Positions 5,470 to 63,334 of a stretch of 64,000 bases of DNA are shown in pieces. Source of the DNA: a virus (lineage: Duplodnaviria; Heunggongvirae; Uroviricota; Caudoviricetes). The stretch covers positions 1 through 64,000 of IMG/VR virus record IMGVR_UViG_3300027917_003468. One strand, written 5' to 3'. The notes beneath the pieces are model-generated. The model saw only the letters and a list, made by a program, of their open reading frames with translations, was not told where the DNA came from and ran no database searches. Numbering within the stretch: position 1 is the first letter of the stretch; every line of letters begins with the position of its first letter. The translations under genes and the position numbers were made by a program.

Positions 5470-6500
5470 GGTATGGATTTCTTCTTCCCTCTGGTTCATT
5501 TTGGCGAGCTGGCGGTCTAACTCTTCATGATTCACTTCTACACATTGGGGGTCTTAGCATGGATGATTCACTTTATGCCATTGGGTTCCTTTTACTTTGT
5601 GATTCGCTTTAGTCATATGGGCCTCTAAACTATGCTGGCTCACTCTAGGACTTTGGGCTCCTATGTGGGGATGATTCACTTAACAACAATGGATTTCTTT
5701 GGCTGGGTGGTTCACTTCTTTTTCAAGGGTTTCTTAAGAGTCTTGGCTCGCTTCGCTTATCTGGGTTTCTTTAAATTATTGGCTCGCTTTTGGTATATGG
5801 GTTTCTTATGACCGGTGATTCACTTAATCGCCATGGGTTTCTTATGAAAGGTGATTCACTAAACGATAATGGTTGCCTTTATCTGGGTGGTTCACTTCTT
5901 CTCTCAATGGGGTTCTTTCTTGTCATGATTCACTAATGCTCTTTGGATTTCTTTGAGTGGGTGATTCATTTCGGAAAGTTGGGTTTCTTAGAGATTGTGA
6001 TTCACTAACCAACCCTGGGCTTCTTTGATGTATTGATTCATTTCAATATCTTAGGTTTCTTAGGACCATTGATTCACTTTATGCCATTAAGAACCTATGG
6101 GTTCCTTTTACTTTGTGATTCACTTAATCATTTTGGGTTCCTTTGTAGCATTGATTTAAACACTTGATTCACTTTGCTCAATTGGATTCCTTGGAGTTCA
6201 TGATTCATTTCGGCAGCTTGGGTTCCTGCGTCCTAATGGTTTATTTGGGGACTCTGGGGTTTTTTGCGTCTATGGTTCACTTTACGGTCATGGAGTTCTG
6301 TCTGTCAATGATTCACTTGATCTTCCTGGGTTTCTTGGTTCTTGTGATTCACTTTGCGCCTCTAGGTTTCTTGCTTCTGATGGTTCACTTGCTCAAATTG
6401 GGCGTCTTTGATTTTGTGATTCACTTAATGATCATGGGTTCCTTTGAGTTTGTGGCTCATTTAAGGAGCTTGGTTGTCTTGAAAGTTATGATTATTCCTT
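5470..6500. repeat. non-coding tandem array, ~28 copies of a 36-bp unit (alternating 18-bp half-units TGATTCACTT / TGGGTTTCTT)
   Basis: Seen directly; each conserved block is followed by 7-8 variable nt; no long ORF except a repeat-driven 114-aa frame. Confidence 0.8.
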
Positions 6501-6507
6501 GCAAATA

Positions 6508-6542
6508 AAAGAGGGGGATCTAATATTCCCCCCTCACCGGTC
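6508..6542 (-). terminator. hairpin GAGGGGG..CCCCCTC followed by T-rich run on minus strand
   Basis: Immediately downstream of minus gene 6544..7497. Confidence 0.5.
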
Positions 6543-6543
6543 T

Positions 6544-7497
6544 CTAATGCAACAATTTCATACCCTCATATACCCATCCTCGTTCTTCGGGCATAATCAT
6601 TCTATGAGCTCCTCCTAAAACTGCCACTGGATATACAGGATCGGTAGGCAGTCCTGATAGTGTTCTTCCTACGTACCAGTAATCGGCCAGGAAGTGTTTG
6701 GCAATCTCCCGGCATGCAGCATTATGGCGATGACCTTTGCTGGCATCTTTCCACATGACTTGCTTGTATCCCCCTTTGACTCTGGTGTGGGTAATACGCT
6801 CTGAGTCGATATACTTGGCTTTTACTTTTTCCTCAAGATAAGCATAAGGCCCTATCGGATCTTTGTTCTTGGCACGAATCTGAGACATGGCCATATTATA
6901 AAGCGCTGTTCTCAGGTTTCGGTTGCCGCCTCCTTTCTCTCCTCTTTTGTAGCGTTGGTAGGCAGGTTTGTCGTAGCCAGCATAAGCCCAAAGACTGGAG
7001 GCGTGATCGGCCTTTTCCAGATCGAGATATACCGTGCAATAAGCTACCGTAATGGGACCGATGTAGGGAACGCCCAAAGCAGAGGTAATAAGCGGGTTGT
7101 TCTCGCTCATCACCAGAATATGCTCTGAGACTTGCTGGGAGAGTTTATTCAGCCTATTTCGGTGAGGTTCCAGGTGTGCTTCGTAGTAGGCCAAGGTTTC
7201 GGGGTTTAAGTGATCGGTTCGGCGTTTTTTGAAGGCATCGATCCTGTTTTCAAGGGAGACCACAAGTTTCAGGATTTGATTACGGTCGTCTACAAGGCTC
7301 TTCAGGTGATCCAGCTCTTCGGTACGGTCTCGCCAGCTATCGTGATGTTTCAGATGCTCAACCGGTTCCATATATACAACATTTTCTTCTGAGTAAGTTC
7401 CTCCTTTCGATCCAGGTACTACACGGTGTTTGTCTCGACCTGCCTCCGACCCCTCTTCTAGTTCTTCTACTACTTTTTCATCTTCTAGTTTTGTCAT
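6544..7497 (-). CDS. IS110-family transposase C-terminal (Transposase_20-like) domain protein without recognisable DEDD N-domain
   Basis: GVPYIGPITVAY...AYAGYDKPAYQRYKRGEKGGGNRNLRTALYNMAMSQIR matches the IS110 C-domain pattern; N-terminus is acidic/coiled-coil. Confidence 0.5.
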   Translation of the reverse strand: MTKLEDEKVVEELEEGSEAGRDKHRVVPGSKGGTYSEENVVYMEPVEHLKHHDSWRDRTEELDHLKSLVDDRNQILKLVVSLENRIDAFKKRRTDHLNPETLAYYEAHLEPHRNRLNKLSQQVSEHILVMSENNPLITSALGVPYIGPITVAYCTVYLDLEKADHASSLWAYAGYDKPAYQRYKRGEKGGGNRNLRTALYNMAMSQIRAKNKDPIGPYAYLEEKVKAKYIDSERITHTRVKGGYKQVMWKDASKGHRHNAACREIAKHFLADYWYVGRTLSGLPTDPVYPVAVLGGAHRMIMPEERGWVYEGMKLLH

Positions 7498-27446: not shown

Positions 27447-27523
27447 ATAAGACCAAAAATTGTTGACAAAAGAATTAGGTCTTCGATTTCTCTGGGGTCC
27501 ATTTTATTGCCTTCCTGTATTAC

Positions 27524-27607
27524 GGAGGATAGAGGATTTGAACCCCTACTGGTGTTACCCAGACTTCCGATTTCGAGTCGGATACCTTACCATTCAGTCA
27601 ATCCTCC
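27524..27607 (-). tRNA. tRNA-Ser (CGA), long variable arm, no encoded CCA
   Basis: Acceptor GGAGGAT/ATCCTCC; anticodon arm TCCGA-CTCGAAA-TCGGA; long extra arm; T-loop GGTTCAAATCC. Confidence 0.7.
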
Positions 27608-29685: not shown

Positions 29686-29720
29686 GCGTGGGGCATTGTG
29701 TTCCACGCCTATTTTTTGAT
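29686..29720 (+). terminator. intrinsic terminator ATAGGCGTGG..CCACGCCTAT + T6
   Basis: 10-bp stem plus TTTTTTG. Confidence 0.65.
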
Positions 29721-29791
29721 AGAGACGAAGGGAATTGAACCCCCATATCACGGTTCGTAGCCGTGCGCTCTATCCTTTGAGCTACGTCTCT
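29720..29791 (-). tRNA. tRNA-Arg (ACG)
   Basis: D-arm TAGCTCAAAGGATAGAGC; anticodon arm CACGG-CTACGAA-CCGTG. Confidence 0.75.
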
Positions 29792-35223: not shown

Positions 35224-35637
35224 TTATTTTACATCAGTTACTTGTAGATTTGTACATCCTTGTGGTGGCTCAATAGCAGGTGTAGTAGCTTGAATGATGT
35301 TCGTCCAACAAAATATGATGCCTGTCCCATAATGAGCACCAACACGAATCTCATACGTCGTTTCTGGCGGAAGATCTTGAATAGTAAAGGTCTTTTGTCT
35401 GTCAGTACTATCAGAAGTATTCCAGATTGTAGAACCCAAAACTCGCCACTGCACTCGTGAAATGATTGGCTTATCTGGAGGGATAGGGTATCCTGCTATT
35501 GAACAATCCCCATCTGAAACTGTAGTTAATGGTAAATCCCATGCTAGGCTAATAGAGTGGGAGTTTGCCGCTTGCGTAACACTTCCAATCAAACTACACA
35601 CTAAAATGGCAATTAGTAGTAACCTGTACAATCTCAT
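35224..35637 (-). CDS. secreted protein, possible FN3-like fold
   Basis: Signal peptide ending VTQA. Confidence 0.4.
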   Translation of the reverse strand: MRLYRLLLIAILVCSLIGSVTQAANSHSISLAWDLPLTTVSDGDCSIAGYPIPPDKPIISRVQWRVLGSTIWNTSDSTDRQKTFTIQDLPPETTYEIRVGAHYGTGIIFCWTNIIQATTPAIEPPQGCTNLQVTDVK

Positions 35638-35849
35638 TTTTTATTCCTCCGTTCTTGTTTGGGTTTACCTACGATAAGTGACATTGGAATTTGATGGTAG
35701 TCGAGCTCTTCTACAATGGCTTCTGCAATTTCTCTTGGTTGTTCTTCAATGTGTCTGTAAATAATAAATACTATCTCGTCTACTTTTGATTCCATGAAAA
35801 TTTTGAGCTCTTCGGGTGTCACGTTTTTGCTAATTTCTCCAATGCACCT

Positions 35850-36731
35850 TTATATTTTTACTATATGTTGTTGCAGAAGCAAAGCAAACTCACTTTCACG
35901 ATCAAGTTCTCTCATATCTATTTTCCATGGTACAAGTTCGGCTCCATCACCTCTAATGGTATAGAATTCTCCACATTCGTCGCACACATAAATACAATGG
36001 TATCTATTTTGCTCTACTCCTACAGCGTTTTGGAGCTCAGGTAATACAATTTTAAGAAGACCAGTACTTTTCATGGTATGTATCATATTGCTGGGTACTG
36101 GATATTTCATTCCTTTTATGAGCTCCATCCTCAGCCTTTCTGCAGAGATACGTCTAATCTGCCGTGCATTTCTCCTTATACCGTTGAAGGTTTCTGGTGC
36201 TATGCTCATGTCCATGTCCAACGCCATGAACCGGCAAGCTCTCAACATTCTTAAGTAATCTTCCTGAAACCGTTTGTCTGCATTCCCTACAGTACGAATG
36301 ACTTTGTGGGAAATATCACGCTGTCCACCAAAGGGATCTAAAATACCATCGGTCTCCAAATCCAGTGCTATGGCATTCATAGTAAAATCTCGACGTTCAA
36401 GGTCGTCATTAATACTGTTAGAGAATTTTACAATGGGTTTCCTACCATTACATTGGAGATCCTTCCTAAAAGTAGTAATTTCAACTGCGTAATTTCGTTC
36501 TTTGCAGTAGATACCTAAAGTGCCGAAACTCTTACCAACACTGTAAATATAATAATCAGAGAATAACTTTTCGATTTCGTGCGGTTTCGCATTAGTGGCA
36601 AGATCTATATCTAATGGTTCTCTCTTGAGGTAAAGATCCCGCAGATATCCGCCGACAATATATGCCTTGTATCCTCTGCATATAAGCCTCTCGCCTATAA
36701 TCTGTGCAAATTCACCTAGTACGACACTCAT
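35850..36731 (-). CDS. cca: tRNA nucleotidyltransferase (CCA-adding enzyme) head/neck domain
   Basis: VGGYLRDLYL...DIDLAT (GGxxRD..DxD) and RRDFTMNA motifs. Confidence 0.8.
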   Translation of the reverse strand: MSVVLGEFAQIIGERLICRGYKAYIVGGYLRDLYLKREPLDIDLATNAKPHEIEKLFSDYYIYSVGKSFGTLGIYCKERNYAVEITTFRKDLQCNGRKPIVKFSNSINDDLERRDFTMNAIALDLETDGILDPFGGQRDISHKVIRTVGNADKRFQEDYLRMLRACRFMALDMDMSIAPETFNGIRRNARQIRRISAERLRMELIKGMKYPVPSNMIHTMKSTGLLKIVLPELQNAVGVEQNRYHCIYVCDECGEFYTIRGDGAELVPWKIDMRELDRESEFALLLQQHIVKI

Positions 36732-37392
36732 ATAAATATCTCTTTACCCTGTGTAGGAGTAGTTCTTTCTTATTGATCTCTGGATGTTCTAGTACCTGTT
36801 CGAGTAGGTGATTCAGAAGCTTTCCAAATACAGGTCCAGGTTTCAGTCCTAACTCGATCAGGTCATGCCCATTGATATCCAAATCGGTTACCTGCATCGG
36901 TGGTTGTTCAGTTTCAATCTCTCTAATTTTCTTTATGAGCTCTTTCAGATGAAAGTTGATTGGGGGTAAACCAGCCTTTGCCAGATTCCCTTTTCGGTCT
37001 GCAATCCGTAACCTTAAGTTGTCTCGGTAATCAGGATTGTTTACCATCCACCTCTTGATACTCTTGGGCTTTGTATCAGGAGTTACGAAATGCATGTGAT
37101 TCCTGACAACTCTGCAGATGTACTCCGTCTCGTTGTTACTGAATTTTAACCGGTCGCAGATCTCTCGGACCATCTTTTCACCCTCTACTTCGTGGGCAAA
37201 GAAATGATAGTCACCAGTATCTTTATCAACAGTACGAGTAGGCACTTTTCCAATATCATGGAGTAGTGCTGCTAACCGTAGAAGTGGGAATCGAGGGTTA
37301 ATTGCGTCCATTGTACGTACACTATGGCTGTACACGTCAGATACCTCTTCCACGCACTTTAGGTTCTCGTATTTGCATTTGTGCTTTTTCAT
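36712..37392 (-). CDS. HD-domain plus CCA-enzyme C-terminal tail domain protein (separate ORF upstream of, and overlapping by 20 nt, the NTase head)
   Basis: LAALLHDIGK ... NHMHF HD motifs; tail TDLDINGHDLIELGLKPGPVFGKLL resembles CCA/poly(A) polymerase C-terminal domains. Confidence 0.65.
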   Translation of the reverse strand: MKKHKCKYENLKCVEEVSDVYSHSVRTMDAINPRFPLLRLAALLHDIGKVPTRTVDKDTGDYHFFAHEVEGEKMVREICDRLKFSNNETEYICRVVRNHMHFVTPDTKPKSIKRWMVNNPDYRDNLRLRIADRKGNLAKAGLPPINFHLKELIKKIREIETEQPPMQVTDLDINGHDLIELGLKPGPVFGKLLNHLLEQVLEHPEINKKELLLHRVKRYLYECRTR

Positions 37393-37440
37393 TTTTTCCT
37401 TGCGTGTTTTTACCCTGCATTTGCGTACTATCTCTACGCA

Positions 37441-37515
37441 TGGTGGTGGTGTCGGGGATCGAACCCGAATCTTGCCGTTATAAGCGACCTACTCTGCCCA
37501 TTGAGTTACACCACC
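37441..37515 (-). tRNA. tRNA-Ile (TAT) tentative, CCA encoded
   Basis: Acceptor GGTGGTG/CACCACC; D-arm ACTCAATGGGCAGAGT; anticodon loop CTTATAA (top stem pair mismatched); T-loop GGGTTCGATCCCC. Confidence 0.6.
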
Positions 37516-38328
37516 AAAATAGAAGTTCTCCAGACATTCCTGTAGGAGATCTCTTATTTCTTCGTGGTGTATTTCTGGCCCCCAAGGAAGTGCGGAGTTC
37601 TCATAGATATGCTGCAATCTCGTCTCCATTTGTTTGAAATATATATGCACTTCCTCTAGGGTATAGAATCCTTTCATAACGGATTTTAGCTGCTCTCTGT
37701 TACGAGTCAGGTCAATATTGCCTCCCAGTAGAATTTGCTCGACCTCATCAAGAAGCCGGAAGATATGAACAGCAAACTTCGTGTCATATCCATACTTCTC
37801 GATCAGTGCCTTTCTTTCTGGACTTTCCCTGCCGTCTGGATCGGTTTTGATCTTGTTCAATTGGCTGAATGCGTATCCTTTAAATTTGTGCCAGGATCCT
37901 TTATGCAAGAACAGGTGCCGATTCTTCCGCACTAGTGTTGCGATTTCTGTTTCAATCAGCACACAATTCCTGGCAGTGAACAAGCTATCAACCATATTTG
38001 GGTTATTTGCTTCTACCAGTTTAAAATACTTTGCGATGTTGTAAATCTGGAAGTCCAAACTATCTTTTTTTGTTTCCCCTTCTACCTCTCCCCTAAACTG
38101 GTCAAATTTAGGAAAGTCATCGTAACCATAGATAAACCCAGATGAACTAGGGTAAACATATTCAATGGGTGGAATGGTAAATCCGTACACATCCCAGTCA
38201 CTGTTCTCGTGATGAGTTCCATATGCGTGACTACCCATAAGAGTCAGGTACTGGATGTTATCAACCATCCACTCCTGCCCCTCGGTAACACGACTTCTAA
38301 TTTTCTTGAGGATCGTGTCTTTATTCAT
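37489..38328 (-). CDS. Pol-beta-superfamily nucleotidyltransferase (YcgL-like)
   Basis: MGSHAYGTHHENSDWDV = GS-x10-DxD minimal nucleotidyltransferase motif; last ~8 codons overlap tRNA-Ile(TAT). Confidence 0.55.
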   Translation of the reverse strand: MNKDTILKKIRSRVTEGQEWMVDNIQYLTLMGSHAYGTHHENSDWDVYGFTIPPIEYVYPSSSGFIYGYDDFPKFDQFRGEVEGETKKDSLDFQIYNIAKYFKLVEANNPNMVDSLFTARNCVLIETEIATLVRKNRHLFLHKGSWHKFKGYAFSQLNKIKTDPDGRESPERKALIEKYGYDTKFAVHIFRLLDEVEQILLGGNIDLTRNREQLKSVMKGFYTLEEVHIYFKQMETRLQHIYENSALPWGPEIHHEEIRDLLQECLENFYFGGVTQWAE

Positions 38329-38437: not shown

Positions 38438-38623
38438 TCATATGTGCGCCCATGTATACCTGTGAACAATATTCCAAACGTTTGTCCGTTTAGCTCCTGT
38501 CAATTGTGCTATTTTCCAAATCGGTACGCTCTTTTGATACAAACTCCGAATCTCTTTTACTTGCTCCTCGGTCAGTTTGGCTTGGAAGTTCTTCTCTCCG
38601 CCTAGTGATTGTTTTTGGTTCAT
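38438..38623 (-). CDS. small HTH protein translationally coupled to rsr
   Basis: ATGA overlap with the rsr stop; HTH-like IWKIAQLTGAKRTNVWNIV. Confidence 0.4.
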   Translation of the reverse strand: MNQKQSLGGEKNFQAKLTEEQVKEIRSLYQKSVPIWKIAQLTGAKRTNVWNIVHRYTWAHI

Positions 38624-40233
38624 ATTTTATCTGTAACAAACGCCTCGATAACACGGGGAACCTCTGCCGAGAAGCCAACACAATCAAGCATCCCAGCATC
38701 TGTAGGATCGGCAATGGAGAAGTTGGTTGCAGTCATACCCATTACAATCAACTTCGCATCTGGATTTACAGCCTTACGGTAGTTGCGCAGTGCCTGATAT
38801 GGATGTGTACGCCCATACCATGTCTCGTTATCAGTAATTACGAGAAAGGTATCGAACTCTGCTCCCATTTTCTGTGCGTGAATCATTGGTAGCGCACAGT
38901 CCGTAGAACCGAAGTTACTGTCCCTCATCTTCCGCACAACTGTATCTAGCCGTTGTTTTGGGCTAATATCCAGTGGCTTGAACTGGTGAGAGAACTTGTA
39001 TACCGCATAGTCCTTCTCCGTATTGGCTGTAACCAGTGCCATTGCTCCTGCTGCTTCCACGCATCGTAGGTTGCTGTTCATGAGGTGCCAACTCATGGAT
39101 CCAGATACGTCAACAGCAATCATGAACCGCTTTCCTGTAGGTTCCACCGCCTTGAATGCTAGATAGAAAGCGCTGTCCAAAGCATCCACGACTCTCTGTA
39201 CTGGCTTCCAAGATAGGCTTCCCCTGAACCCCTGCCCTTCTGCATATGTCTTCAGGGCGAACAGGATTGCGATTGGATGTACACGAGCCTTTTGTAGGGC
39301 CTTCACGTCTCCCAGACTGTCCTCAATTTTTCTTACTAGGTCTAGGTTGTCAGTAGTCAGAAGTCCAACAGAGCTCATTACTCCCAAGTTCCTGATCATC
39401 GCTGTCATGGGCATCTTCTCGGCAAGAGTTTCCCACACCTTTTTACTTTTCTTGAACTTGGTAGGAAGCATCTCATGAGTCAGACCATGATCTCTGACGA
39501 TCTCGGTCAGTCTCTTTTCTGTCATGCCTTCCTCATGTGCTCTCATGTAGGCATCCAGCAAAAGAATACCGGTAGGCTTCACTTTCTTTTCCTTACCCTT
39601 GCCTTCGTAGAAAGCATCCCTATCGGTTACCCATTTGAACAGTAAGGATTCTTTCTCATCACGAGGCTTACGATGGATGACCCTCAGAGCATCTCGTTGA
39701 GACCAGTCGCCTCGGCTTTGGTACTTCACCATCTGGTAGGCCAACTTGTCCAGTGGCTTCTGGTACCAGTTCCACATCAGTCTCCGTACCTTCCGGTTCC
39801 AGCTTGTCAGTTCGTTCAGGTATCCAACAAAGGTTAGAAAATGTGTACCGGTTCTGACCACCTTGTTGATGTTATCAGGAGAGACGGACTGTCCCTTCGG
39901 CTGATTCGCCACGCAAAGAGCAAGAGCAAACAATGCTGGATCGTTCTTGTGTGCCAGACCTTGATCAGAAACCTCAACGATCTCTTTCACTGTGCGGTCG
40001 AAATCAGTACTGATACACTCAAGAACATTCTGGGCGCTCTTGACTGTGAGTGGATGCTCCTTTGTGTAATAGGTTCCACCCTCTGTTCCAAGGATGAGGA
40101 ACCTACGAAGTGTCTGCCACTCGTCAACCTGGAAGACATACCCACCGGCATAGTTCTTGACCTGATCTTTTCTGGCTTTTGTTCGCTGGTTTGTGTTTGT
40201 TACAGCCTTTGCGTAGTTTAGTTTCCGTGCCAT
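38620..40233 (-). CDS. rsr: Ro60/Rsr orthologue (TROVE domain + von Willebrand factor A (vWA) domain with metal-ion-dependent adhesion site (MIDAS) motif)
   Basis: GYVFQVDEWQTLRRFLILGTEGGTYYTKEHPL and PALFALALC match the Ro60 N-terminus as recalled from memory (no alignment run); vWA MIDAS MIAVDVSGSM. Confidence 0.9.
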   Translation of the reverse strand: MARKLNYAKAVTNTNQRTKARKDQVKNYAGGYVFQVDEWQTLRRFLILGTEGGTYYTKEHPLTVKSAQNVLECISTDFDRTVKEIVEVSDQGLAHKNDPALFALALCVANQPKGQSVSPDNINKVVRTGTHFLTFVGYLNELTSWNRKVRRLMWNWYQKPLDKLAYQMVKYQSRGDWSQRDALRVIHRKPRDEKESLLFKWVTDRDAFYEGKGKEKKVKPTGILLLDAYMRAHEEGMTEKRLTEIVRDHGLTHEMLPTKFKKSKKVWETLAEKMPMTAMIRNLGVMSSVGLLTTDNLDLVRKIEDSLGDVKALQKARVHPIAILFALKTYAEGQGFRGSLSWKPVQRVVDALDSAFYLAFKAVEPTGKRFMIAVDVSGSMSWHLMNSNLRCVEAAGAMALVTANTEKDYAVYKFSHQFKPLDISPKQRLDTVVRKMRDSNFGSTDCALPMIHAQKMGAEFDTFLVITDNETWYGRTHPYQALRNYRKAVNPDAKLIVMGMTATNFSIADPTDAGMLDCVGFSAEVPRVIEAFVTDKI

Positions 40234-40263: not shown

Positions 40264-41022
40264 GGAGCGAAGTGGTTAAGGCCTATCCCTAACCTCGGCT
40301 CCTCATTAAAAATAGAGAACTGGATATTATACTTGAGTGGCGTGGGTTGCTTATCGATCTTGGCTATCTCAGTTCTCTGAAAAAGTTGGGAGCAAATTTG
40401 AAAGAGGAAGTTGCCCGAAGGCATTGCGGGTTTGATTAAATGTCAAATGCGATAATCCTCTTTCCCCGGCTCCCCAAACTGGTTTAGATAAAAAAATGAG
40501 GGCAAATAAACTTTGGAAGGAGGTATCATTATAAGTGATAACCTTCCAAATTCGGCCCTCCATCTTACTCAAGAACTAGGTGCGCTTTTTGGAGGTGAGT
40601 TCCTTTCACCTAATGGCTTTCCTAGTTCTGTTTTAAAAGTTGAGAGCTAAACCCGACCAAAGATCTGCCATTTAACACTGGGGTTGGGCGGCAAAACCCT
40701 CCGTTAACCTTTGACCCTCGGCTCTCCATATCATTTATTCCAAAAAAGTGAGAGCAAATCTTAGAGACGATGCCTTTTCCAATTAGGCTATCGCCCCATA
40801 TGTGGGGCGAAATAGATTCGAACTATTAATAACCATCTCTATCCGGCTCTCCAAAAAATTTAGGAGCAAAATTTAGTAAGGGGATCGACATGATCGACAT
40901 GTATGATAACCCTTTACCATCGGCTCCTCAAATTGTCAGATATATATAAGGTTGAGAGCAAAAATTGTTAGAGGGAGCGTTCGCACCATTGCAAGGTAAC
41001 CCTCTACCATTCGGCTCTCCAA
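40264..41022 (-). ncRNA. tandem array of 6-7 small structured RNA genes (Y-RNA-like candidates) immediately 5' of rsr
   Basis: Units on the + strand (co-oriented with rsr; minus-strand reading favoured) at ~40264-40302, 40388-40474, 40498-40560, 40642-40736, 40750-40851, 40863-40927, 40954-41019. Each has a terminal stem GAGAGC/GCTCTC with compensatory variants (GAGGGC/GCCCTC, GGGAGC/GCTCCC, GGAGC/GCTCC) and a second co-varying inner stem. On the minus strand one unit carries a canonical T-arm AATAG-TTCGAAT-CTATT and another a GCC-UUCG-GGC tetraloop. Confidence 0.55.
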
Positions 41023-58714: not shown

Positions 58715-58934
58715 TGGTACGAGGGCAACAGCAACAGAGAATGCTTTACGATTTGTTTATTGTCCTCAGTGCGATGTGGTAAAAGCAAAAAGGGGCATAG
58801 CTTCTGAAATAGCGAAGTATAGATGCCCCCAATGTGACCACAAGCCGGTAATTTTTGCTAGGCCACCAACAGCACAAAGACTGCGTAGAGAGAAGGAGAG
58901 GCGAGGGATTGATGAGCCTTCAATCGGTAGCTAA
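58686..58934 (+). CDS. small Zn-ribbon protein
   Basis: CPQCD...CPQCD. Confidence 0.3.
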   Translation: MGCGCKKRTNGTRATATENALRFVYCPQCDVVKAKRGIASEIAKYRCPQCDHKPVIFARPPTAQRLRREKERRGIDEPSIGS

Positions 58935-61710
58935 TGATCAAATTACTGACAAACCAGTTCAAGTCGAATTGGATATGGATGAATGGTATAACTTGTGCCG
59001 TGAACGTCCTGATGCCTTTGCACACTATTATTTCAAACATATTCTTAGATCTCCTAGTAGCGACTTCCACTTCTTATTGTATTCTCTTATCAAAAAAATA
59101 AATGAGACACCCTATCCTAATAATATTGCTATTGCAGCCCCACGAGGAAGTGCCAAGACACAAATTATAAATGTAATCCTCCCTATCTGGTGTGCAGCCT
59201 TCGAACTAAAAAAATTTATTGTGGTTATGAGTGAAACAAGCAGATTGGCAGAAGCAAACTTAGAATCTATTAAGTATGAGCTTACGTCCAATGAACTTCT
59301 TGCTGAGCACTTTCCGCATCTTGTTGGTGAGGGAGCAACTTGGAGAAAGGAAGTTATTGATACTTGTAATGATATACGAATCATTGCAGTGGGCAGTGGT
59401 AAACAGGTACGAGGAAGTCAGAAGAAGGGAGGACACAGGCCTGATTTGACATTGTGCCATCCTGCTGGAACTAAAATACTAGGTACCAAAAATAATATTG
59501 ATGTATCTATGTTAACAGTAGGAGATAAAGTTTATAACCATAATTGGGAAGAGGATGAGATTATAGCCTGGAAACCTCATACTTGGACTGGTGATTACTA
59601 TAAATTCAAACTCTACGGGCACCCAGAAGAAATTGTAGCTACAGCAGGGCACCAATTTTTTGTAAGGAAGAGGGTAGGAAAAAAATATATAAGAACCGGT
59701 AATCACATGAAATGTTTAGATAGAGGAAAATGGAAGAGAAACCAATATGAATGCCTGGTAACATATTCAGAGCCCAAAAAATTGAATGTAAGAGAAATAG
59801 AAAAGGGGGATATGGTAGGGTATAAAATAAATACTAAAATAATTCCCATAGAAGAAATAGCAAGAAAAGAAAATTGGAATATATACAAACCTGGGGGGGA
59901 GATAATAAATAGGGATGATAAAGGTAGGATTGTACAAGGCGGTAAAGGATCATATAAGCCAGTAAATATTGGTGGTAAAGAGTGGTGGCTGGCTTCGAAG
60001 GAGTTTTGGTGGCTTGCAGGAGTATTTTTAGGAGATGGGACAGTAGATAGAAAAACAGGTTATAGTACTAGATTCTCTTGTAATCCGTCAGAAATAGACC
60101 ATATTAATAAAATTATTAGAAGTATCGAATTTTTGGGGAATACGCCCTCTAAAATCCGAGAGAAAACAGTTGTAAGTATACACCTATCAAATAGACTCAT
60201 AAATTATATTTTTAATCAATGGAAAAGAGAAAAGAACTCCCACAAAGTACCTTCAAGAAATATTGAGTTTTTAGATCCAGAATTACAAAGGCAATTAATC
60301 TTAGGTTATATTGCCGCAGATGGTTGGGTTTCTAAAGAGCAGGGGGTTAGAATTACATCGGTGTGTTTTGAGCTCCTAGAATTTATACAGAGGATCCTTC
60401 TTCGGCAGGGAATAGTTAGTAGTATTAGGAATGGAATAAAAGGAGGAGAGGTTAAAATATTTGACCGTATTGTAAACACTCAAGATAAGTATGATCTCTA
60501 TTTTAAACAAGATGCCTGGAAACTCGGTCTACTACCAAAACCAAAAAGCAAACTTAAATTGAATAAGCGCTGGTTTATTGAAGATGATACTGTGTGGAGA
60601 AAAGTTAAAAGTATAGGTTCAGAATATAAGACAGATATTGTATTTCCATTTAAAGTAAGAGATGAGCATTCTTATCTAACTACCCAATTTTATAGCCTAA
60701 ATTGTGATGACCTTTCCTCGGACGAGATGGTAAGAACAAAGAAAAGACGTGATGATCATGAGGATTGGTTTAGGAGGGCTGTTATGGGAATGGAAGGAAC
60801 GGCTGATACAAAAATGGATGTTATTGTCACAGGTACTATTCTACACCCCCATTGTCTTCTTTCCAAGTTACTAGATCCTAAAATATTTGCTGGTTGGGAA
60901 TCCTATAAATATAAAGCCATATACGAATTTTCTAAATCACCTCTATGGAAAACGTGGGAGCACCTTTATACAAGTTATGAGGATGAGAAGAGAGAAGAAA
61001 CTGCATACAATTTTTTTAAAGCGCATGAAAAAGAAATGCTAGAGGGTACTAAAGTGCTTTGGCCAGAGGGAGATGGGTACTATAAACTGATGGTTTATAA
61101 AATTAAAGCTGGACCAAGAGCTTTTGCTAGTGAGAAACAAAATACTGCAATTGATCCTTCACAAACTCTATTTGACCCACAAAGAATAGTTTACTTCGAC
61201 CGCAGGGACATAGATCTAGATAAATTGGTTATATATGGTGCTATAGATCCTGCTAGTGGTGAGGCAAAACGACAAGGAGACTTATCAGCAGTTGTAACTA
61301 TTGGCAGGGATCCAAAGTCAGGCATTATATATGTATTAGATGTAATGGCCGCAGCGAAGGGTCCTAGTTACTGTATTAAGTATATTAAAAGAGTGCATGA
61401 GCTCTATGACTACCGAAAGTTTGGAGTGGATCAGGACGCACTAAAAATGCTAAAGGATTTCATCGAGAAGGACATACCAGATTTACAGGGAAAATTAACC
61501 TTGTATGATTTGAGACTACCTAAACCTAAACGTATTGATCGATTAGAACCTATTATTCATAGTGGGCTCTTACGTTTTCAAAGGAATCAGTTAGAGGCGA
61601 CGGAGGAATTAACATTTTATCCCAATAGTGAGCATGACGATGTTCTGGATGCCTTAGAGATTGCTGTAAGACTTACAGGACACCGAGGTTACAGACTCTT
61701 AACATATTAG
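58912..61710 (+). CDS. terL: terminase large subunit interrupted by an intein
   Basis: Walker A AAPRGSAKT; exteins join to give RPDLTL-CDDL (Walker B-like); C-terminal nuclease region; start placed at MSLQSV after RBS GGAGAGG. Confidence 0.85.
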   Translation: MSLQSVANDQITDKPVQVELDMDEWYNLCRERPDAFAHYYFKHILRSPSSDFHFLLYSLIKKINETPYPNNIAIAAPRGSAKTQIINVILPIWCAAFELKKFIVVMSETSRLAEANLESIKYELTSNELLAEHFPHLVGEGATWRKEVIDTCNDIRIIAVGSGKQVRGSQKKGGHRPDLTLCHPAGTKILGTKNNIDVSMLTVGDKVYNHNWEEDEIIAWKPHTWTGDYYKFKLYGHPEEIVATAGHQFFVRKRVGKKYIRTGNHMKCLDRGKWKRNQYECLVTYSEPKKLNVREIEKGDMVGYKINTKIIPIEEIARKENWNIYKPGGEIINRDDKGRIVQGGKGSYKPVNIGGKEWWLASKEFWWLAGVFLGDGTVDRKTGYSTRFSCNPSEIDHINKIIRSIEFLGNTPSKIREKTVVSIHLSNRLINYIFNQWKREKNSHKVPSRNIEFLDPELQRQLILGYIAADGWVSKEQGVRITSVCFELLEFIQRILLRQGIVSSIRNGIKGGEVKIFDRIVNTQDKYDLYFKQDAWKLGLLPKPKSKLKLNKRWFIEDDTVWRKVKSIGSEYKTDIVFPFKVRDEHSYLTTQFYSLNCDDLSSDEMVRTKKRRDDHEDWFRRAVMGMEGTADTKMDVIVTGTILHPHCLLSKLLDPKIFAGWESYKYKAIYEFSKSPLWKTWEHLYTSYEDEKREETAYNFFKAHEKEMLEGTKVLWPEGDGYYKLMVYKIKAGPRAFASEKQNTAIDPSQTLFDPQRIVYFDRRDIDLDKLVIYGAIDPASGEAKRQGDLSAVVTIGRDPKSGIIYVLDVMAAAKGPSYCIKYIKRVHELYDYRKFGVDQDALKMLKDFIEKDIPDLQGKLTLYDLRLPKPKRIDRLEPIIHSGLLRFQRNQLEATEELTFYPNSEHDDVLDALEIAVRLTGHRGYRLLTY
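59455..60702 (+). mobile_element. intein (~416 aa) with LAGLIDADG homing-endonuclease domain inside terL
   Basis: Starts with CHPAGTKILG and ends ..FYSLN just before CDD; blocks LAGVFLGDGTV and LGYIAADGWVS. Confidence 0.75.
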
Positions 61711-61723
61711 AAGGATAACCAAG

Positions 61724-63334
61724 ATGCAAAAAGTACATGAGAGACGTCACCCACTGTACGAGGAATATCAGGATGACTGGGAATTTTATATGCAGAGTTT
61801 CAAAGGTGGTGATACATACCTGGAAAAATATCTCGCCACTCATCGTCTTGAGAATGCTGCAGACTATGGCCGACGTAAGCAAAGAGCCTACTACTTGAAT
61901 TACTGTGCTCCTATTGCAATGATTCCGTCAGATTTTATATTTAAGAAGGAAGCAACACGTCCCGCAGATGATACTTTAACTGCTATCCGAGAAGACGTGG
62001 ATATGAGAGGAACGAATATACATGAATTTATGCGGCGTATTTGTACATTAAGTTCTATCTACGGTCATATACATATTCTTATAGACCGACCCAGACCTCC
62101 ACAAGAATTTGAAGAATTAATTCTCAATGGTAAGACAACTAAATTAGATAGTATAGTTTTAAGACCCTATGCAACAATCATCGAACCACCAAATCTGTTA
62201 GACTGGTCAGTGAATGCGGAGACACAAGAACTTAATTGGATATTATTATATGAGGAAGTATATGACGATGAAAACTTCGAAGAAGAACGTGAGGTAAAAG
62301 CTCGATATAAAATATGGACAAAAGATGAATGGATTATCTACGATGAGGATAATAACATTACAGATAGAGGAATGCATGGTCTAGGATTTGTGCCGCTAAT
62401 TACATGTTATCATAAAGATATTGATCTTGATATGATTGGTGAAAGTATGTTGAAAGATGTGGCCGATGCAAACAAAGCTATCTTTAATTGGTGCAGTAAC
62501 ATTGATGAGATGATTGCACGTCAAACATTTTCGCAATTAATATGCCCTGATGATGGTTCCATGCTTACAGAGGAAGTAGATGAACAAGGCAAGTCGGCAG
62601 CATTGAAACAAGTAGGATCATCCACAATATTCACGTTCCCAGCCGATGCAAGACACGCACCAGCTTTTATTTCCCCAGATACTCGCCAAATTAGTACGAT
62701 ATGGGAAATGATACAAAACCATGTGAGAGAGATGTTTCGTATGGCAGGACTAGTATCCGCAAAAACATCCCTTGTACAACTCCAACAGCGTACAGGTCGA
62801 GCTCAAGAATTCGAATTTCTAGATATGGCAGTATTCTTTTCAGCAAAAGCAAAAAAACTTGAAAGTACAGAAAATAAAATGAATCGAGTTTTTTATAAAT
62901 GGATGGCTGTATATGATAGAAGTCCAGAACGATGCTACTATCCAGAAAAATTTGACATTACATCACCTAATGAAATTGTAGAACTATTCACGAAGGTAAC
63001 TCTCAATGCAATCTCAGGAACACTAAATAAAGAAATGGCAAAGAGACTGACACATCAAGTATTACCAAATGCTGAAGACGAAATAGTCGAGAAGATCTAT
63101 AAAGAGATTGAAGCAAATCAAGTACTTGAAGATCCAACACTATTAATGAAGGAGCAGCAAAAACCTAATATTAAGACTCCTCCTTCCCAAGACGAGGAAA
63201 GTAGTGAGGAGCAAGAAGAGGAGGAAGAAGAGGAGGAAGAAGAAAAAAAGCAAGGACAACCCAAAAAGGAACGAGTACCTAATACCAAAAATCCAACACG
63301 TAGAGCAAAATGGAGGAACCAACAAAATAAGTAA
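61724..63334 (+). CDS. portal protein (acidic poly-Glu C-terminus)
   Basis: Size and position directly after terL; no motif proof. Confidence 0.6.
   Translation: MQKVHERRHPLYEEYQDDWEFYMQSFKGGDTYLEKYLATHRLENAADYGRRKQRAYYLNYCAPIAMIPSDFIFKKEATRPADDTLTAIREDVDMRGTNIHEFMRRICTLSSIYGHIHILIDRPRPPQEFEELILNGKTTKLDSIVLRPYATIIEPPNLLDWSVNAETQELNWILLYEEVYDDENFEEEREVKARYKIWTKDEWIIYDEDNNITDRGMHGLGFVPLITCYHKDIDLDMIGESMLKDVADANKAIFNWCSNIDEMIARQTFSQLICPDDGSMLTEEVDEQGKSAALKQVGSSTIFTFPADARHAPAFISPDTRQISTIWEMIQNHVREMFRMAGLVSAKTSLVQLQQRTGRAQEFEFLDMAVFFSAKAKKLESTENKMNRVFYKWMAVYDRSPERCYYPEKFDITSPNEIVELFTKVTLNAISGTLNKEMAKRLTHQVLPNAEDEIVEKIYKEIEANQVLEDPTLLMKEQQKPNIKTPPSQDEESSEEQEEEEEEEEEEKKQGQPKKERVPNTKNPTRRAKWRNQQNK

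Follow-up and report, generated by a model that had tools for sequence, protein, structure and literature searches.

Class II CCA-adding enzymes are textbook single-chain enzymes, and the communication between their head/neck and body/tail parts has been studied with engineered chimeras and truncations. Two polypeptides take part in making or maintaining CCA in Aquifex aeolicus, where a CC-adding and an A-adding enzyme collaborate, and genes with rearranged parts are known as well, for example permuted or two-subunit DNA methyltransferases and the permuted tRNA genes of Cyanidioschyzon. In the bacterial heterotetrameric glycyl-tRNA synthetase (GlyRS) the HD domain of the beta subunit resembles the body of class II CCA enzymes (PMC8464048), and the tRNA nucleotidyltransferases of phages have been discussed in general (PMC7693777, PMC7824862). 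No description of a naturally split, permuted or heterodimeric class II CCA-adding enzyme was found in the open-access literature. Here we describe two overlapping open reading frames (ORFs) in a window of 64,000 nucleotides (nt), which is the whole stretch of DNA analyzed and corresponds to positions 1 to 64,000 of the IMG/VR virus record IMGVR_UViG_3300027917_003468 (Caudoviricetes). These ORFs probably encode a naturally split, order-permuted heterodimeric class II CCA-adding/repair enzyme of a tailed phage, whose assembly and activity are predicted from sequence comparison and structural modeling.

The ORF translated first (ORF-C, further on the C-half) carries the body, i.e. the HD domain, and the tail, while the ORF translated second (ORF-N, the N-half) carries the catalytic head and the neck (Table 1). 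Along the 466 positions of the NCBIfam model TIGR02692 (CCA tRNA nucleotidyltransferase) the two are complementary, the N-half occupying positions 19-250 and the C-half 257-456, and jointly the two products amount to one complete class II CCA enzyme in which nothing is duplicated or missing. Neither half passes the whole-protein cut-offs of the NCBIfam equivalogs (218 against 290 bits and 69.5 against 438.8). The best NCBIfam match of the N-half is NF009814, CCA tRNA nucleotidyltransferase, with 218 bits over model positions 11-231, and its comparison with the sequence of 1MIV, the CCA-adding enzyme of Bacillus stearothermophilus, gives an E value of 1.6e-43. In the alignment with 1MIV motif A of the N-half reads GGYLRD..DIDLAT and motif B RRDFTMNA (within ERRDFTMNA), motif C is also seen, and motif D is EDYLRMLRACRF, located just 5' of the neck; its residues E157, D158, R161 and R164 are invariant in all 75 aligned sequences. 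The C-half scores above the cut-offs of both PF01966 and the TIGR00277 HDIG model and retains the HD metal-binding set H..HD..H..H..D, in which (numbering of the concatenated alignment) all residues are invariant (H316, H338-D339, H360, H392) except D425, which is nearly so. When the window proteins are joined as N+C they share 36-45% identity with single-chain relatives over the whole concatenated length. By these sequence matches the N-half and the C-half make up one class II CCA-adding enzyme that has an HD body and whose genes follow the order body-tail / head-neck.

A first-pass annotation, made from the sequence of the window, had already described an ORF with the HD domain and the tail upstream of the catalytic head ORF, an overlap of 20 nt in another frame and a tail of the GxDLxxLGxxPGPxFG type in the upstream ORF. 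All three observations hold: Pfam domains and every related locus showing both halves place HD and tail before head and neck on the minus strand, ORF-N is read in the +1 frame relative to ORF-C, and the tail motif NGHDLIELGLKPGPVFG is found in the C-half, together with the PF13735 match. The alignment of both ORFs to CCA families, which had been proposed as a check, also came out in favor of this description, as both match the CCA transferase model TIGR02692, the C-half at 257-456. The canonical order given there as head-neck-body-tail(-HD) needs to be corrected, since in class II enzymes the HD domain does not follow the tail but is itself the body between neck and tail; the upstream ORF therefore consists of body(HD) and tail.

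With the single-chain class II enzymes (NF009814/TIGR02692, 1MIV, E. coli Cca) the phage pair shares the head elements GGxxRD..DxD and RRD, motif D of the form EDxxR and the neck, the HD body with H..HD..H..H..D, the tail with GxxPGPxxG, and a predicted fold that superposes on 1MIV. It differs from them in being two polypeptides, in the swapped gene order and in a 66-amino acid (aa) insertion; as body(HD) and tail are located on a separate polypeptide encoded 5' of head and neck, the contiguity of a class II single chain is lost. The CC-adding and A-adding enzymes are likewise two polypeptides, but they are complete paralogues dividing the reaction steps, whereas the phage pair divides the domains of one enzyme. 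Like GlyRS, with its catalytic alpha and its HD-containing, tRNA-binding beta on separate chains encoded by adjacent genes, the phage pair separates catalysis from tRNA binding; GlyRS, however, belongs to another catalytic family and shows no permutation with respect to a single-chain version of itself. With permuted genes the pair shares the placement of the 3'/C-terminal part upstream of the 5'/N-terminal part, a state that a fission or duplication route to circular permutation would be expected to pass through halfway. It concerns another enzyme family, and its pieces, judged from sequence, are not rejoined either as RNA or as protein.

The arrangement is not restricted to one record and goes far beyond what chance would give. 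Three independent sources, JGI, ENA and Logan, contain the pair with identical protein sequences, and a search with the N-half against 5.8 billion proteins returned, beyond the identical protein, seven further short N-half proteins of 279-321 aa with 48-78% identity (set P0001-P0008), while all later matches were single-chain enzymes of 430-505 aa. These short N-halves (48-100% identity) all keep H245 of GVEQNRYH, followed by an added extension, and the search with the C-half gives matching stand-alone proteins with HD domain and tail (P0121-P0129). The order C-half then N-half is present in every related locus long enough for both, that is in L001-L007, L092 and L091+L008, the last being two contigs of one sequencing run that overlap by exactly 30 nt, a length taken to be k-1 of Logan's k=31 assembly. 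The order recurs in no fewer than eight independent metagenome assemblies, with identities of 48-78%, and about 10 distinct sequences of the split family are present in the public metagenome data searched. The ratio of nonsynonymous to synonymous substitutions (dN/dS; Nei-Gojobori, only where synonymous sites are unsaturated) is 0.06-0.19 in the cores of both halves and 0.12-0.24 in their extensions. No close DNA relatives came up in a collection of 50,697 deposited phage genomes, the protein matches there reaching at most 39.5% identity (compared by protein identity only). A scan of 80 viral loci in IMG/VR (56 single-chain, about 25 with the N-half only) contained no permuted arrangement, and no relative was found among species-representative cellular genomes. 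In the data covered here only a small clade of uncultivated phages has the permuted split pair. The most likely source of the swapped order is one ancestral rearrangement inherited since, either by tandem duplication with truncation of both copies or by fission with transposition; because synonymous sites are saturated, the route of the swap is beyond reconstruction.

While the order of the halves is constant, the junction between them varies. An overlap of 20 nt is present in L001/L002, L003, L004/L005 and two further contigs, and L092 has an overlap of 38 nt. In L006 the halves are separated by a gap of 9 nt and the C-half ends in TAG, in L007 an 84-aa ORF without known function lies between them, and in L091+L008 the intervening sequence holds a DUF5662 gene and an 88-aa ORF. 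Every N-half that could be read at its start, including those of L006, L008 and L092, has its own ATG with a purine run similar to a Shine-Dalgarno (SD) sequence 5' of it, and the loci with the 20-nt overlap have, besides this run, a stop in the N-half frame at the same distance of 15 nt 5' of the ATG. No slippery motif common to the loci was found in the overlap region. Only a model in which the N-half is initiated independently, and coupled translationally to the C-half where the ORFs overlap, fits all the loci as read from their sequences.

The position of the cut is informative. In all 70 single-chain relatives the segment reads GVxQNxxH-x-x-DVxxH, the invariant His always being separated from the Asp by exactly two residues, which indicates that the insertion is derived. 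In the window these two residues are replaced by 66 aa that include the chain break (residues 246-311 of N+C), and the cut, at the neck/body junction, lies in the loop from the invariant His (H245) of GVxQNxxH to DVxxH, with which the HD domain opens. As this is the very start of the HD/body domain, with the invariant His left on the catalytic chain, the cut is not in a linker between independent domains. Throughout the split family the N-half adds 33-63 residues after ...QNRYH, and the C-half has about 18 residues before S-DVYSH, which are without counterpart in the 70 single-chain relatives. CxxC and a Trp are invariant in seven of seven N-extensions of alignment A5, CxxC being found also in the fragments P0242 and P0243 and in the N-half of L092; HxC is present in all 10 C-halves that have their N-terminus, seven of which contain a second Cys in the extension. 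What distinguishes the split family is its swapped order, a cut within HxxDVxxH and the paired Cys/His extensions. An exhaustive profile search with the N-extension over 1.84 billion representative proteins returned only family members and fragments (P0003, P0242, P0243), and neither a donor family nor a single-chain ancestor with the insertion. Two other likenesses were tried and set aside. The N-extension as a decayed remnant of the first HD helices left by a tandem duplication (ALLLQQHIVK against AALLHDIGK) obtained an hhalign probability of 0.2%, and a faint MAFFT likeness of the N-extension's end, QQHIVKI/Y, to the C-extension's start, KKHxCKY, was too weak and was not used.

The AlphaFold2 prediction used the window proteins joined canonically as N+C; their alignment also contained 70 single-chain enzymes and, as separate sequences, the halves of relatives, the extensions being covered by unpaired rows only. 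The concatenation has a mean predicted local distance difference test (pLDDT) of 92.2 and a predicted template modeling (pTM) score of 0.88. At the junction (residues 246-311) pLDDT is 64-88, and the N-extension is modeled as three strands and a helix and the C-extension as one strand. Foldseek matches the model to full-length CCA-adding enzymes along some 500 aligned columns, 1MIV being the top match (E 1.7e-20, target-normalized template modeling score 0.77); the top matches are all CCA-adding enzymes or class II relatives, and the A-adding structures 1VFG and 4WC2 are among the hits.

From these results we propose that two polypeptides are made from adjacent, translationally coupled genes, body(HD) and tail first, head and neck second, and that the chains would assemble non-covalently into the usual head-neck-body-tail shape. 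The N-half would supply nucleotide-adding catalysis through motifs A-E, together with the invariant His245 preceding the HD motif, and the C-half would bind tRNA and heal 3' ends through its H..HD..H..H..D set. In E. coli Cca, a multifunctional CCA addition/repair protein, the HD activity removes 2',3'-cyclic phosphate and phosphate. The role of the phage enzyme would be adding or repairing CCA ends on phage and host tRNAs. The extensions may form a small intermolecular beta-sheet clasp, plausibly zinc-bound, with CxxC of the N-half and HxC of the C-half, with or without the further Cys, as candidate ligands, as conservation and the predicted topology suggest. A zinc ribbon or clasp would have four conserved Cys/His ligands on two knuckles and a matching fold; CxxC is invariant in seven N-extensions and HxC in 10 C-extensions, with no match to a Pfam family or PDB fold. 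That an intermolecular Cys2-His-Cys zinc clasp evolved to hold the enzyme halves, and that the locus is a stable intermediate toward circular permutation, we put forward only tentatively and regard as rather doubtful. Since the HD/tail subunit is a free polypeptide, it could, speculatively, also serve other nucleotidyltransferases of the repair block, e.g. the adjacent RlaP.

Two related arrangements bear on this proposal. In L094 (1746-3300) a CCA-enzyme pair is split in the canonical N-then-C order, with both ORFs and their motifs intact and GGCVRD in the N-half. Its N-half ends in ...WHPEGAKIIPV*, a 151-nt spacer with a terminator-like hairpin follows, and the C-half, which is P0217 and was seen on six contigs, starts MIDFDPTNPEHLDPTKFQIIPGDALTHT; a short 'DP.K..IIP' segment recurs on either side of the cut. 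The loop that is broken (…WHPEG / …GDALTHT) is the one broken in the window, but the order is canonical, the CxxC/HxC extensions are lacking, and identity to the window proteins is low (40% for the N-half, 29% for the C-half), so that the split in L094 is independent. We know of no published description of such a canonical-order split CCA pair. Apart from this, about 25 loci in L058-L088 (IMG/VR; match at ~6001-6700 in each) contain phage-encoded enzymes consisting of head and neck only, of about 230 aa and typically ending LWLKPTxEK. Their Pol-beta head and neck are homologous to the N-half, but they end at model position 237 or earlier, before GVxQNxxH, and no HD/tail partner is detectable within 6 kb. 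In L074/L075 a head-only ORF with a Cys-rich tail was seen.

The split of the window genes could be attributed to several causes other than a heterodimer. The first-pass annotation had listed, besides a genuinely split enzyme, a programmed frameshift giving an HD-tail-head fusion and a sequencing error. A programmed +1 ribosomal frameshift in the 20-nt overlap, leading to a single circularly permuted HD-tail-head-neck protein, finds some encouragement in the preservation of the overlap length in four diverged lineages and in L001, where the last sense codon and stop are TTT TGA, resembling the shift-prone +1 site of prfB. Such genes have a conserved slippery site and overlap and a downstream frame without initiation signals. 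Here the N-half frame is open for just 15 nt 5' of its ATG, no slippery sequence is common to the loci, and every N-half read at its start possesses an SD-like run and ATG of its own. Instead of an overlap L006 has a gap of 9 nt and an in-frame TAG, and L007 and L091+L008 have whole genes, and a frameshift therefore cannot be the conserved mechanism. Moreover, in the class II fold the C-terminus of the tail and the N-terminus of the head are at opposite ends of the elongated enzyme, so a direct fusion would probably not reach the canonical assembly within one chain. We consider such a fusion very improbable, although a low-level +1 shift may occur in individual phages. An artefact of sequencing or assembly, or a decaying pseudogene, is a natural suspicion because split ORFs are frequently artefacts. 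One apparent split CCA gene, P0162/L093 (2315-3678), was rejected here for this reason, having a run of N (scaffold gap) at its junction, and it cautions against counting split genes from gene calls alone. For the window pair, recurrence in independent assemblies from several samples and purifying selection rule this out, its probability being practically nil: both ORFs are intact with all catalytic motifs, dN/dS stays within 0.06-0.24, and no indel, of 1-2 nt or otherwise, could convert the order C-then-N into a conventional gene. A degenerate split intein, whose extensions would trans-splice the halves into canonical order, is suggested by the Cys which in most members is residue +1 after H245, by the Ser that always precedes DV in the C-half and by the inteins found elsewhere in this phage lineage (in the terminase and in the L004 ATPase). 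Against it stand the combined length of the extensions, just 51-81 aa, which is too small for the HINT fold, a first residue that is Asn or Ser in three members (Asn in two), the lack of a terminal His-Asn and of any intein match in Pfam, and a predicted structure of mixed alpha/beta type; of the hallmarks of a split intein the +1 Ser is present, and we regard trans-splicing as extremely improbable. What remains of the first-pass list is the genuinely split enzyme, for which conservation, purifying selection, independent translation signals and the complementary coverage of one CCA-enzyme model all speak.

A more serious alternative is that the halves are two functionally independent proteins of the same pathway, a minimal tRNA nucleotidyltransferase of head and neck and an HD/tail tRNA-end phosphohydrolase or binding protein, which form no stable complex. 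The head-and-neck-only ORFs of about 25 IMG/VR phage loci, the unrelated ORFs that part the halves in two relatives and the independent split of L094, with its spacer and hairpin, are all in accordance with it. On the other hand, both genes are present, and their order is unchanged, in all family members with a contig long enough to cover them; the break lies inside HxxDVxxH and not at a domain boundary, leaving the invariant His and the first body element on the N-half; the N-half of the split family keeps GVEQNRYH, before which the N-only phage enzymes end; and both new termini carry conserved extensions under purifying selection, which AlphaFold2 builds into one sheet. We therefore hold independent action of the halves to be unlikely and prefer the heterodimeric enzyme. 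Several observations nevertheless weigh against the heterodimer or parts of it. Since many phages have head-and-neck-only enzymes with no C-half nearby, the N-half might work alone, and the genes between the halves in L007 and L091+L008 loosen translational coupling. The head-neck-body-tail fold was seen for the artificial N+C concatenation only. The joined extensions modeled alone with AlphaFold2 give the same pattern of strands and helix at a pLDDT of 64.6, this model matches nothing in the PDB at E below 5 with Foldseek, and the joined extensions have no match in Pfam. P0008, a member of the split family, is without CxxC, and the second Cys of the C-extension is absent in three of 10 members. 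Finally, the predicted CCA-adding specificity, as distinct from CC-adding, A-adding or poly(A) activity, is drawn from the best family matches, and the PcnB model also scores 155 bits.

The split genes are part of a larger set of RNA-repair genes. Terminase and portal genes at 58855-63334 identify the window as that of a tailed phage, and the pair belongs to a co-directional block on the minus strand in the order YrlA-like RNA, Rsr/Ro60, small ORF, RlaP, tRNA-Ile, C-half and N-half, which continues after the N-half with a conserved 62-aa ORF, an fn3 protein and an AAA ATPase (Table 1). The YrlA-like RNA is located about 510 nt 5' of Rsr/Ro60 on the same strand and is plausibly a phage-encoded Y RNA partner of Ro60. 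The RlaP ORF, on the same strand, shares its last nine codons with the tRNA-Ile(TAT) gene. Ten tRNA genes are present in the window, the nine besides tRNA-Ile at lower coordinates on the same strand. The 3' CCA is encoded in eight of the 10 and absent in tRNA-Ser(CGA) and tRNA-Arg(ACG) (27523-27607 and 29720-29791, both on the minus strand), which are followed by TAA and TCA in its place. In L001, L003 and L004 the position of the 62-aa ORF is taken by a counterpart of 59-66 aa, and the ORF could be a further component of the module. The L004 homologue of the AAA ATPase is 732 aa long and contains a Hom_end_hint intein. With this intein, a probable intein inside the terminase of the window and the transposase at 6544-7497, mobile elements are plentiful in the phage lineage. 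Scans for promoter and terminator consensus sequences gave counts at chance level. Surveys of jumbo phages already count CCA-adding enzymes, RlaP and Ro60/TROVE proteins among the RNA-repair equipment of phages (PMC7824862), so the function found here is ordinary, while the gene architecture is not.

Table 1. Coordinates of the split CCA-enzyme genes, their parts and other features of the window.
Feature	Position	Strand	Source or remark
ORF-C (C-half, 226 aa), class II CCA-adding enzyme body (HD domain) and tail, translated first	36712..37392	-	ORF list, Pfam, NCBIfam
ORF-N (N-half, 293 aa), head and neck with catalytic motifs A-E, then GVEQNRYH and 48-aa extension	35850..36731	-	ORF list, Pfam, NCBIfam
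HD phosphohydrolase domain, C-half residues 21-104	37081..37332	-	Pfam PF01966, E 4.5e-12
Tail / tRNA-binding region tRNA_NucTran2_2, C-half residues 153-214	36751..36936	-	Pfam PF13735, E 6e-13
Pol-beta-type nucleotidyltransferase head PolyA_pol, N-half residues 23-146	36294..36665	-	Pfam PF01743, E 5e-33; 1MIV alignment
Neck PolyA_pol_RNAbd, N-half residues 174-235	36027..36212	-	Pfam PF12627, E 4.6e-17
C-terminal extension of N-half, residues 246-293, CIYVCDECGEFYT...W...ALLLQQHIVKI	35853..35996	-	alignment A5
N-terminal extension of C-half, residues 1-18, MKKHKCKYENLKCVEEVS	37339..37392	-	alignment A2
Overlap of ORF-C and ORF-N, 20 nt, ATGAGTGTCGTACTAGGTGA	36712..36731	-	ORF list
SD-like AAGGA, 5 nt 5' of C-half ATG	37397..37401	-	read from sequence
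TAA stop closing N-half frame 15 nt 5' of its ATG	36744-36746	-	sequence
Purine-rich SD-like AAAGAG for N-half, overlapping that TAA	36740-36745	-	sequence
YrlA-like RNA (Rfam RF02553)	40746-40852	-	full model 1-114, 38.3 bits, E 1.1e-5; gathering score 69
Rsr/Ro60	40233..38620	-	NCBIfam, 469 bits
RlaP nucleotidyltransferase	37489-38328	-	Pfam
tRNA-Ile(TAT), directly 5' of C-half	37441-37515	-	overlaps 3' end of RlaP ORF
62-aa ORF directly 3' of N-half	35634-35822	-	no family match
AAA ATPase, 422 aa	33792-35060	-	
Terminase large subunit, 950 aa	58855-61710	+	LAGLIDADG homing-endonuclease domain at residues 476-542, weak intein-splicing signal around it
Transposase-like ORF	6544-7497	-	PHROG 4285, E 7e-23

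The role of the enzyme is conventional, and what is new for the class II CCA enzyme family is its architecture. To annotation pipelines the two ORFs will be an 'HD domain protein' and a 'truncated poly(A) polymerase', and a complete enzyme will go unrecognized. As a natural two-piece system the pair would allow the contribution of body/tail and HD domain to CCA specificity and 3'-end repair to be tested in trans, and it would offer a model for how a split protein reassembles, and the locus may document a real intermediate of circular permutation. It also enlarges the picture of phage RNA-repair modules, made up of Ro60/Y RNA, RlaP, CCA enzyme and tRNAs, which probably counter tRNA-attacking nucleases of the host.

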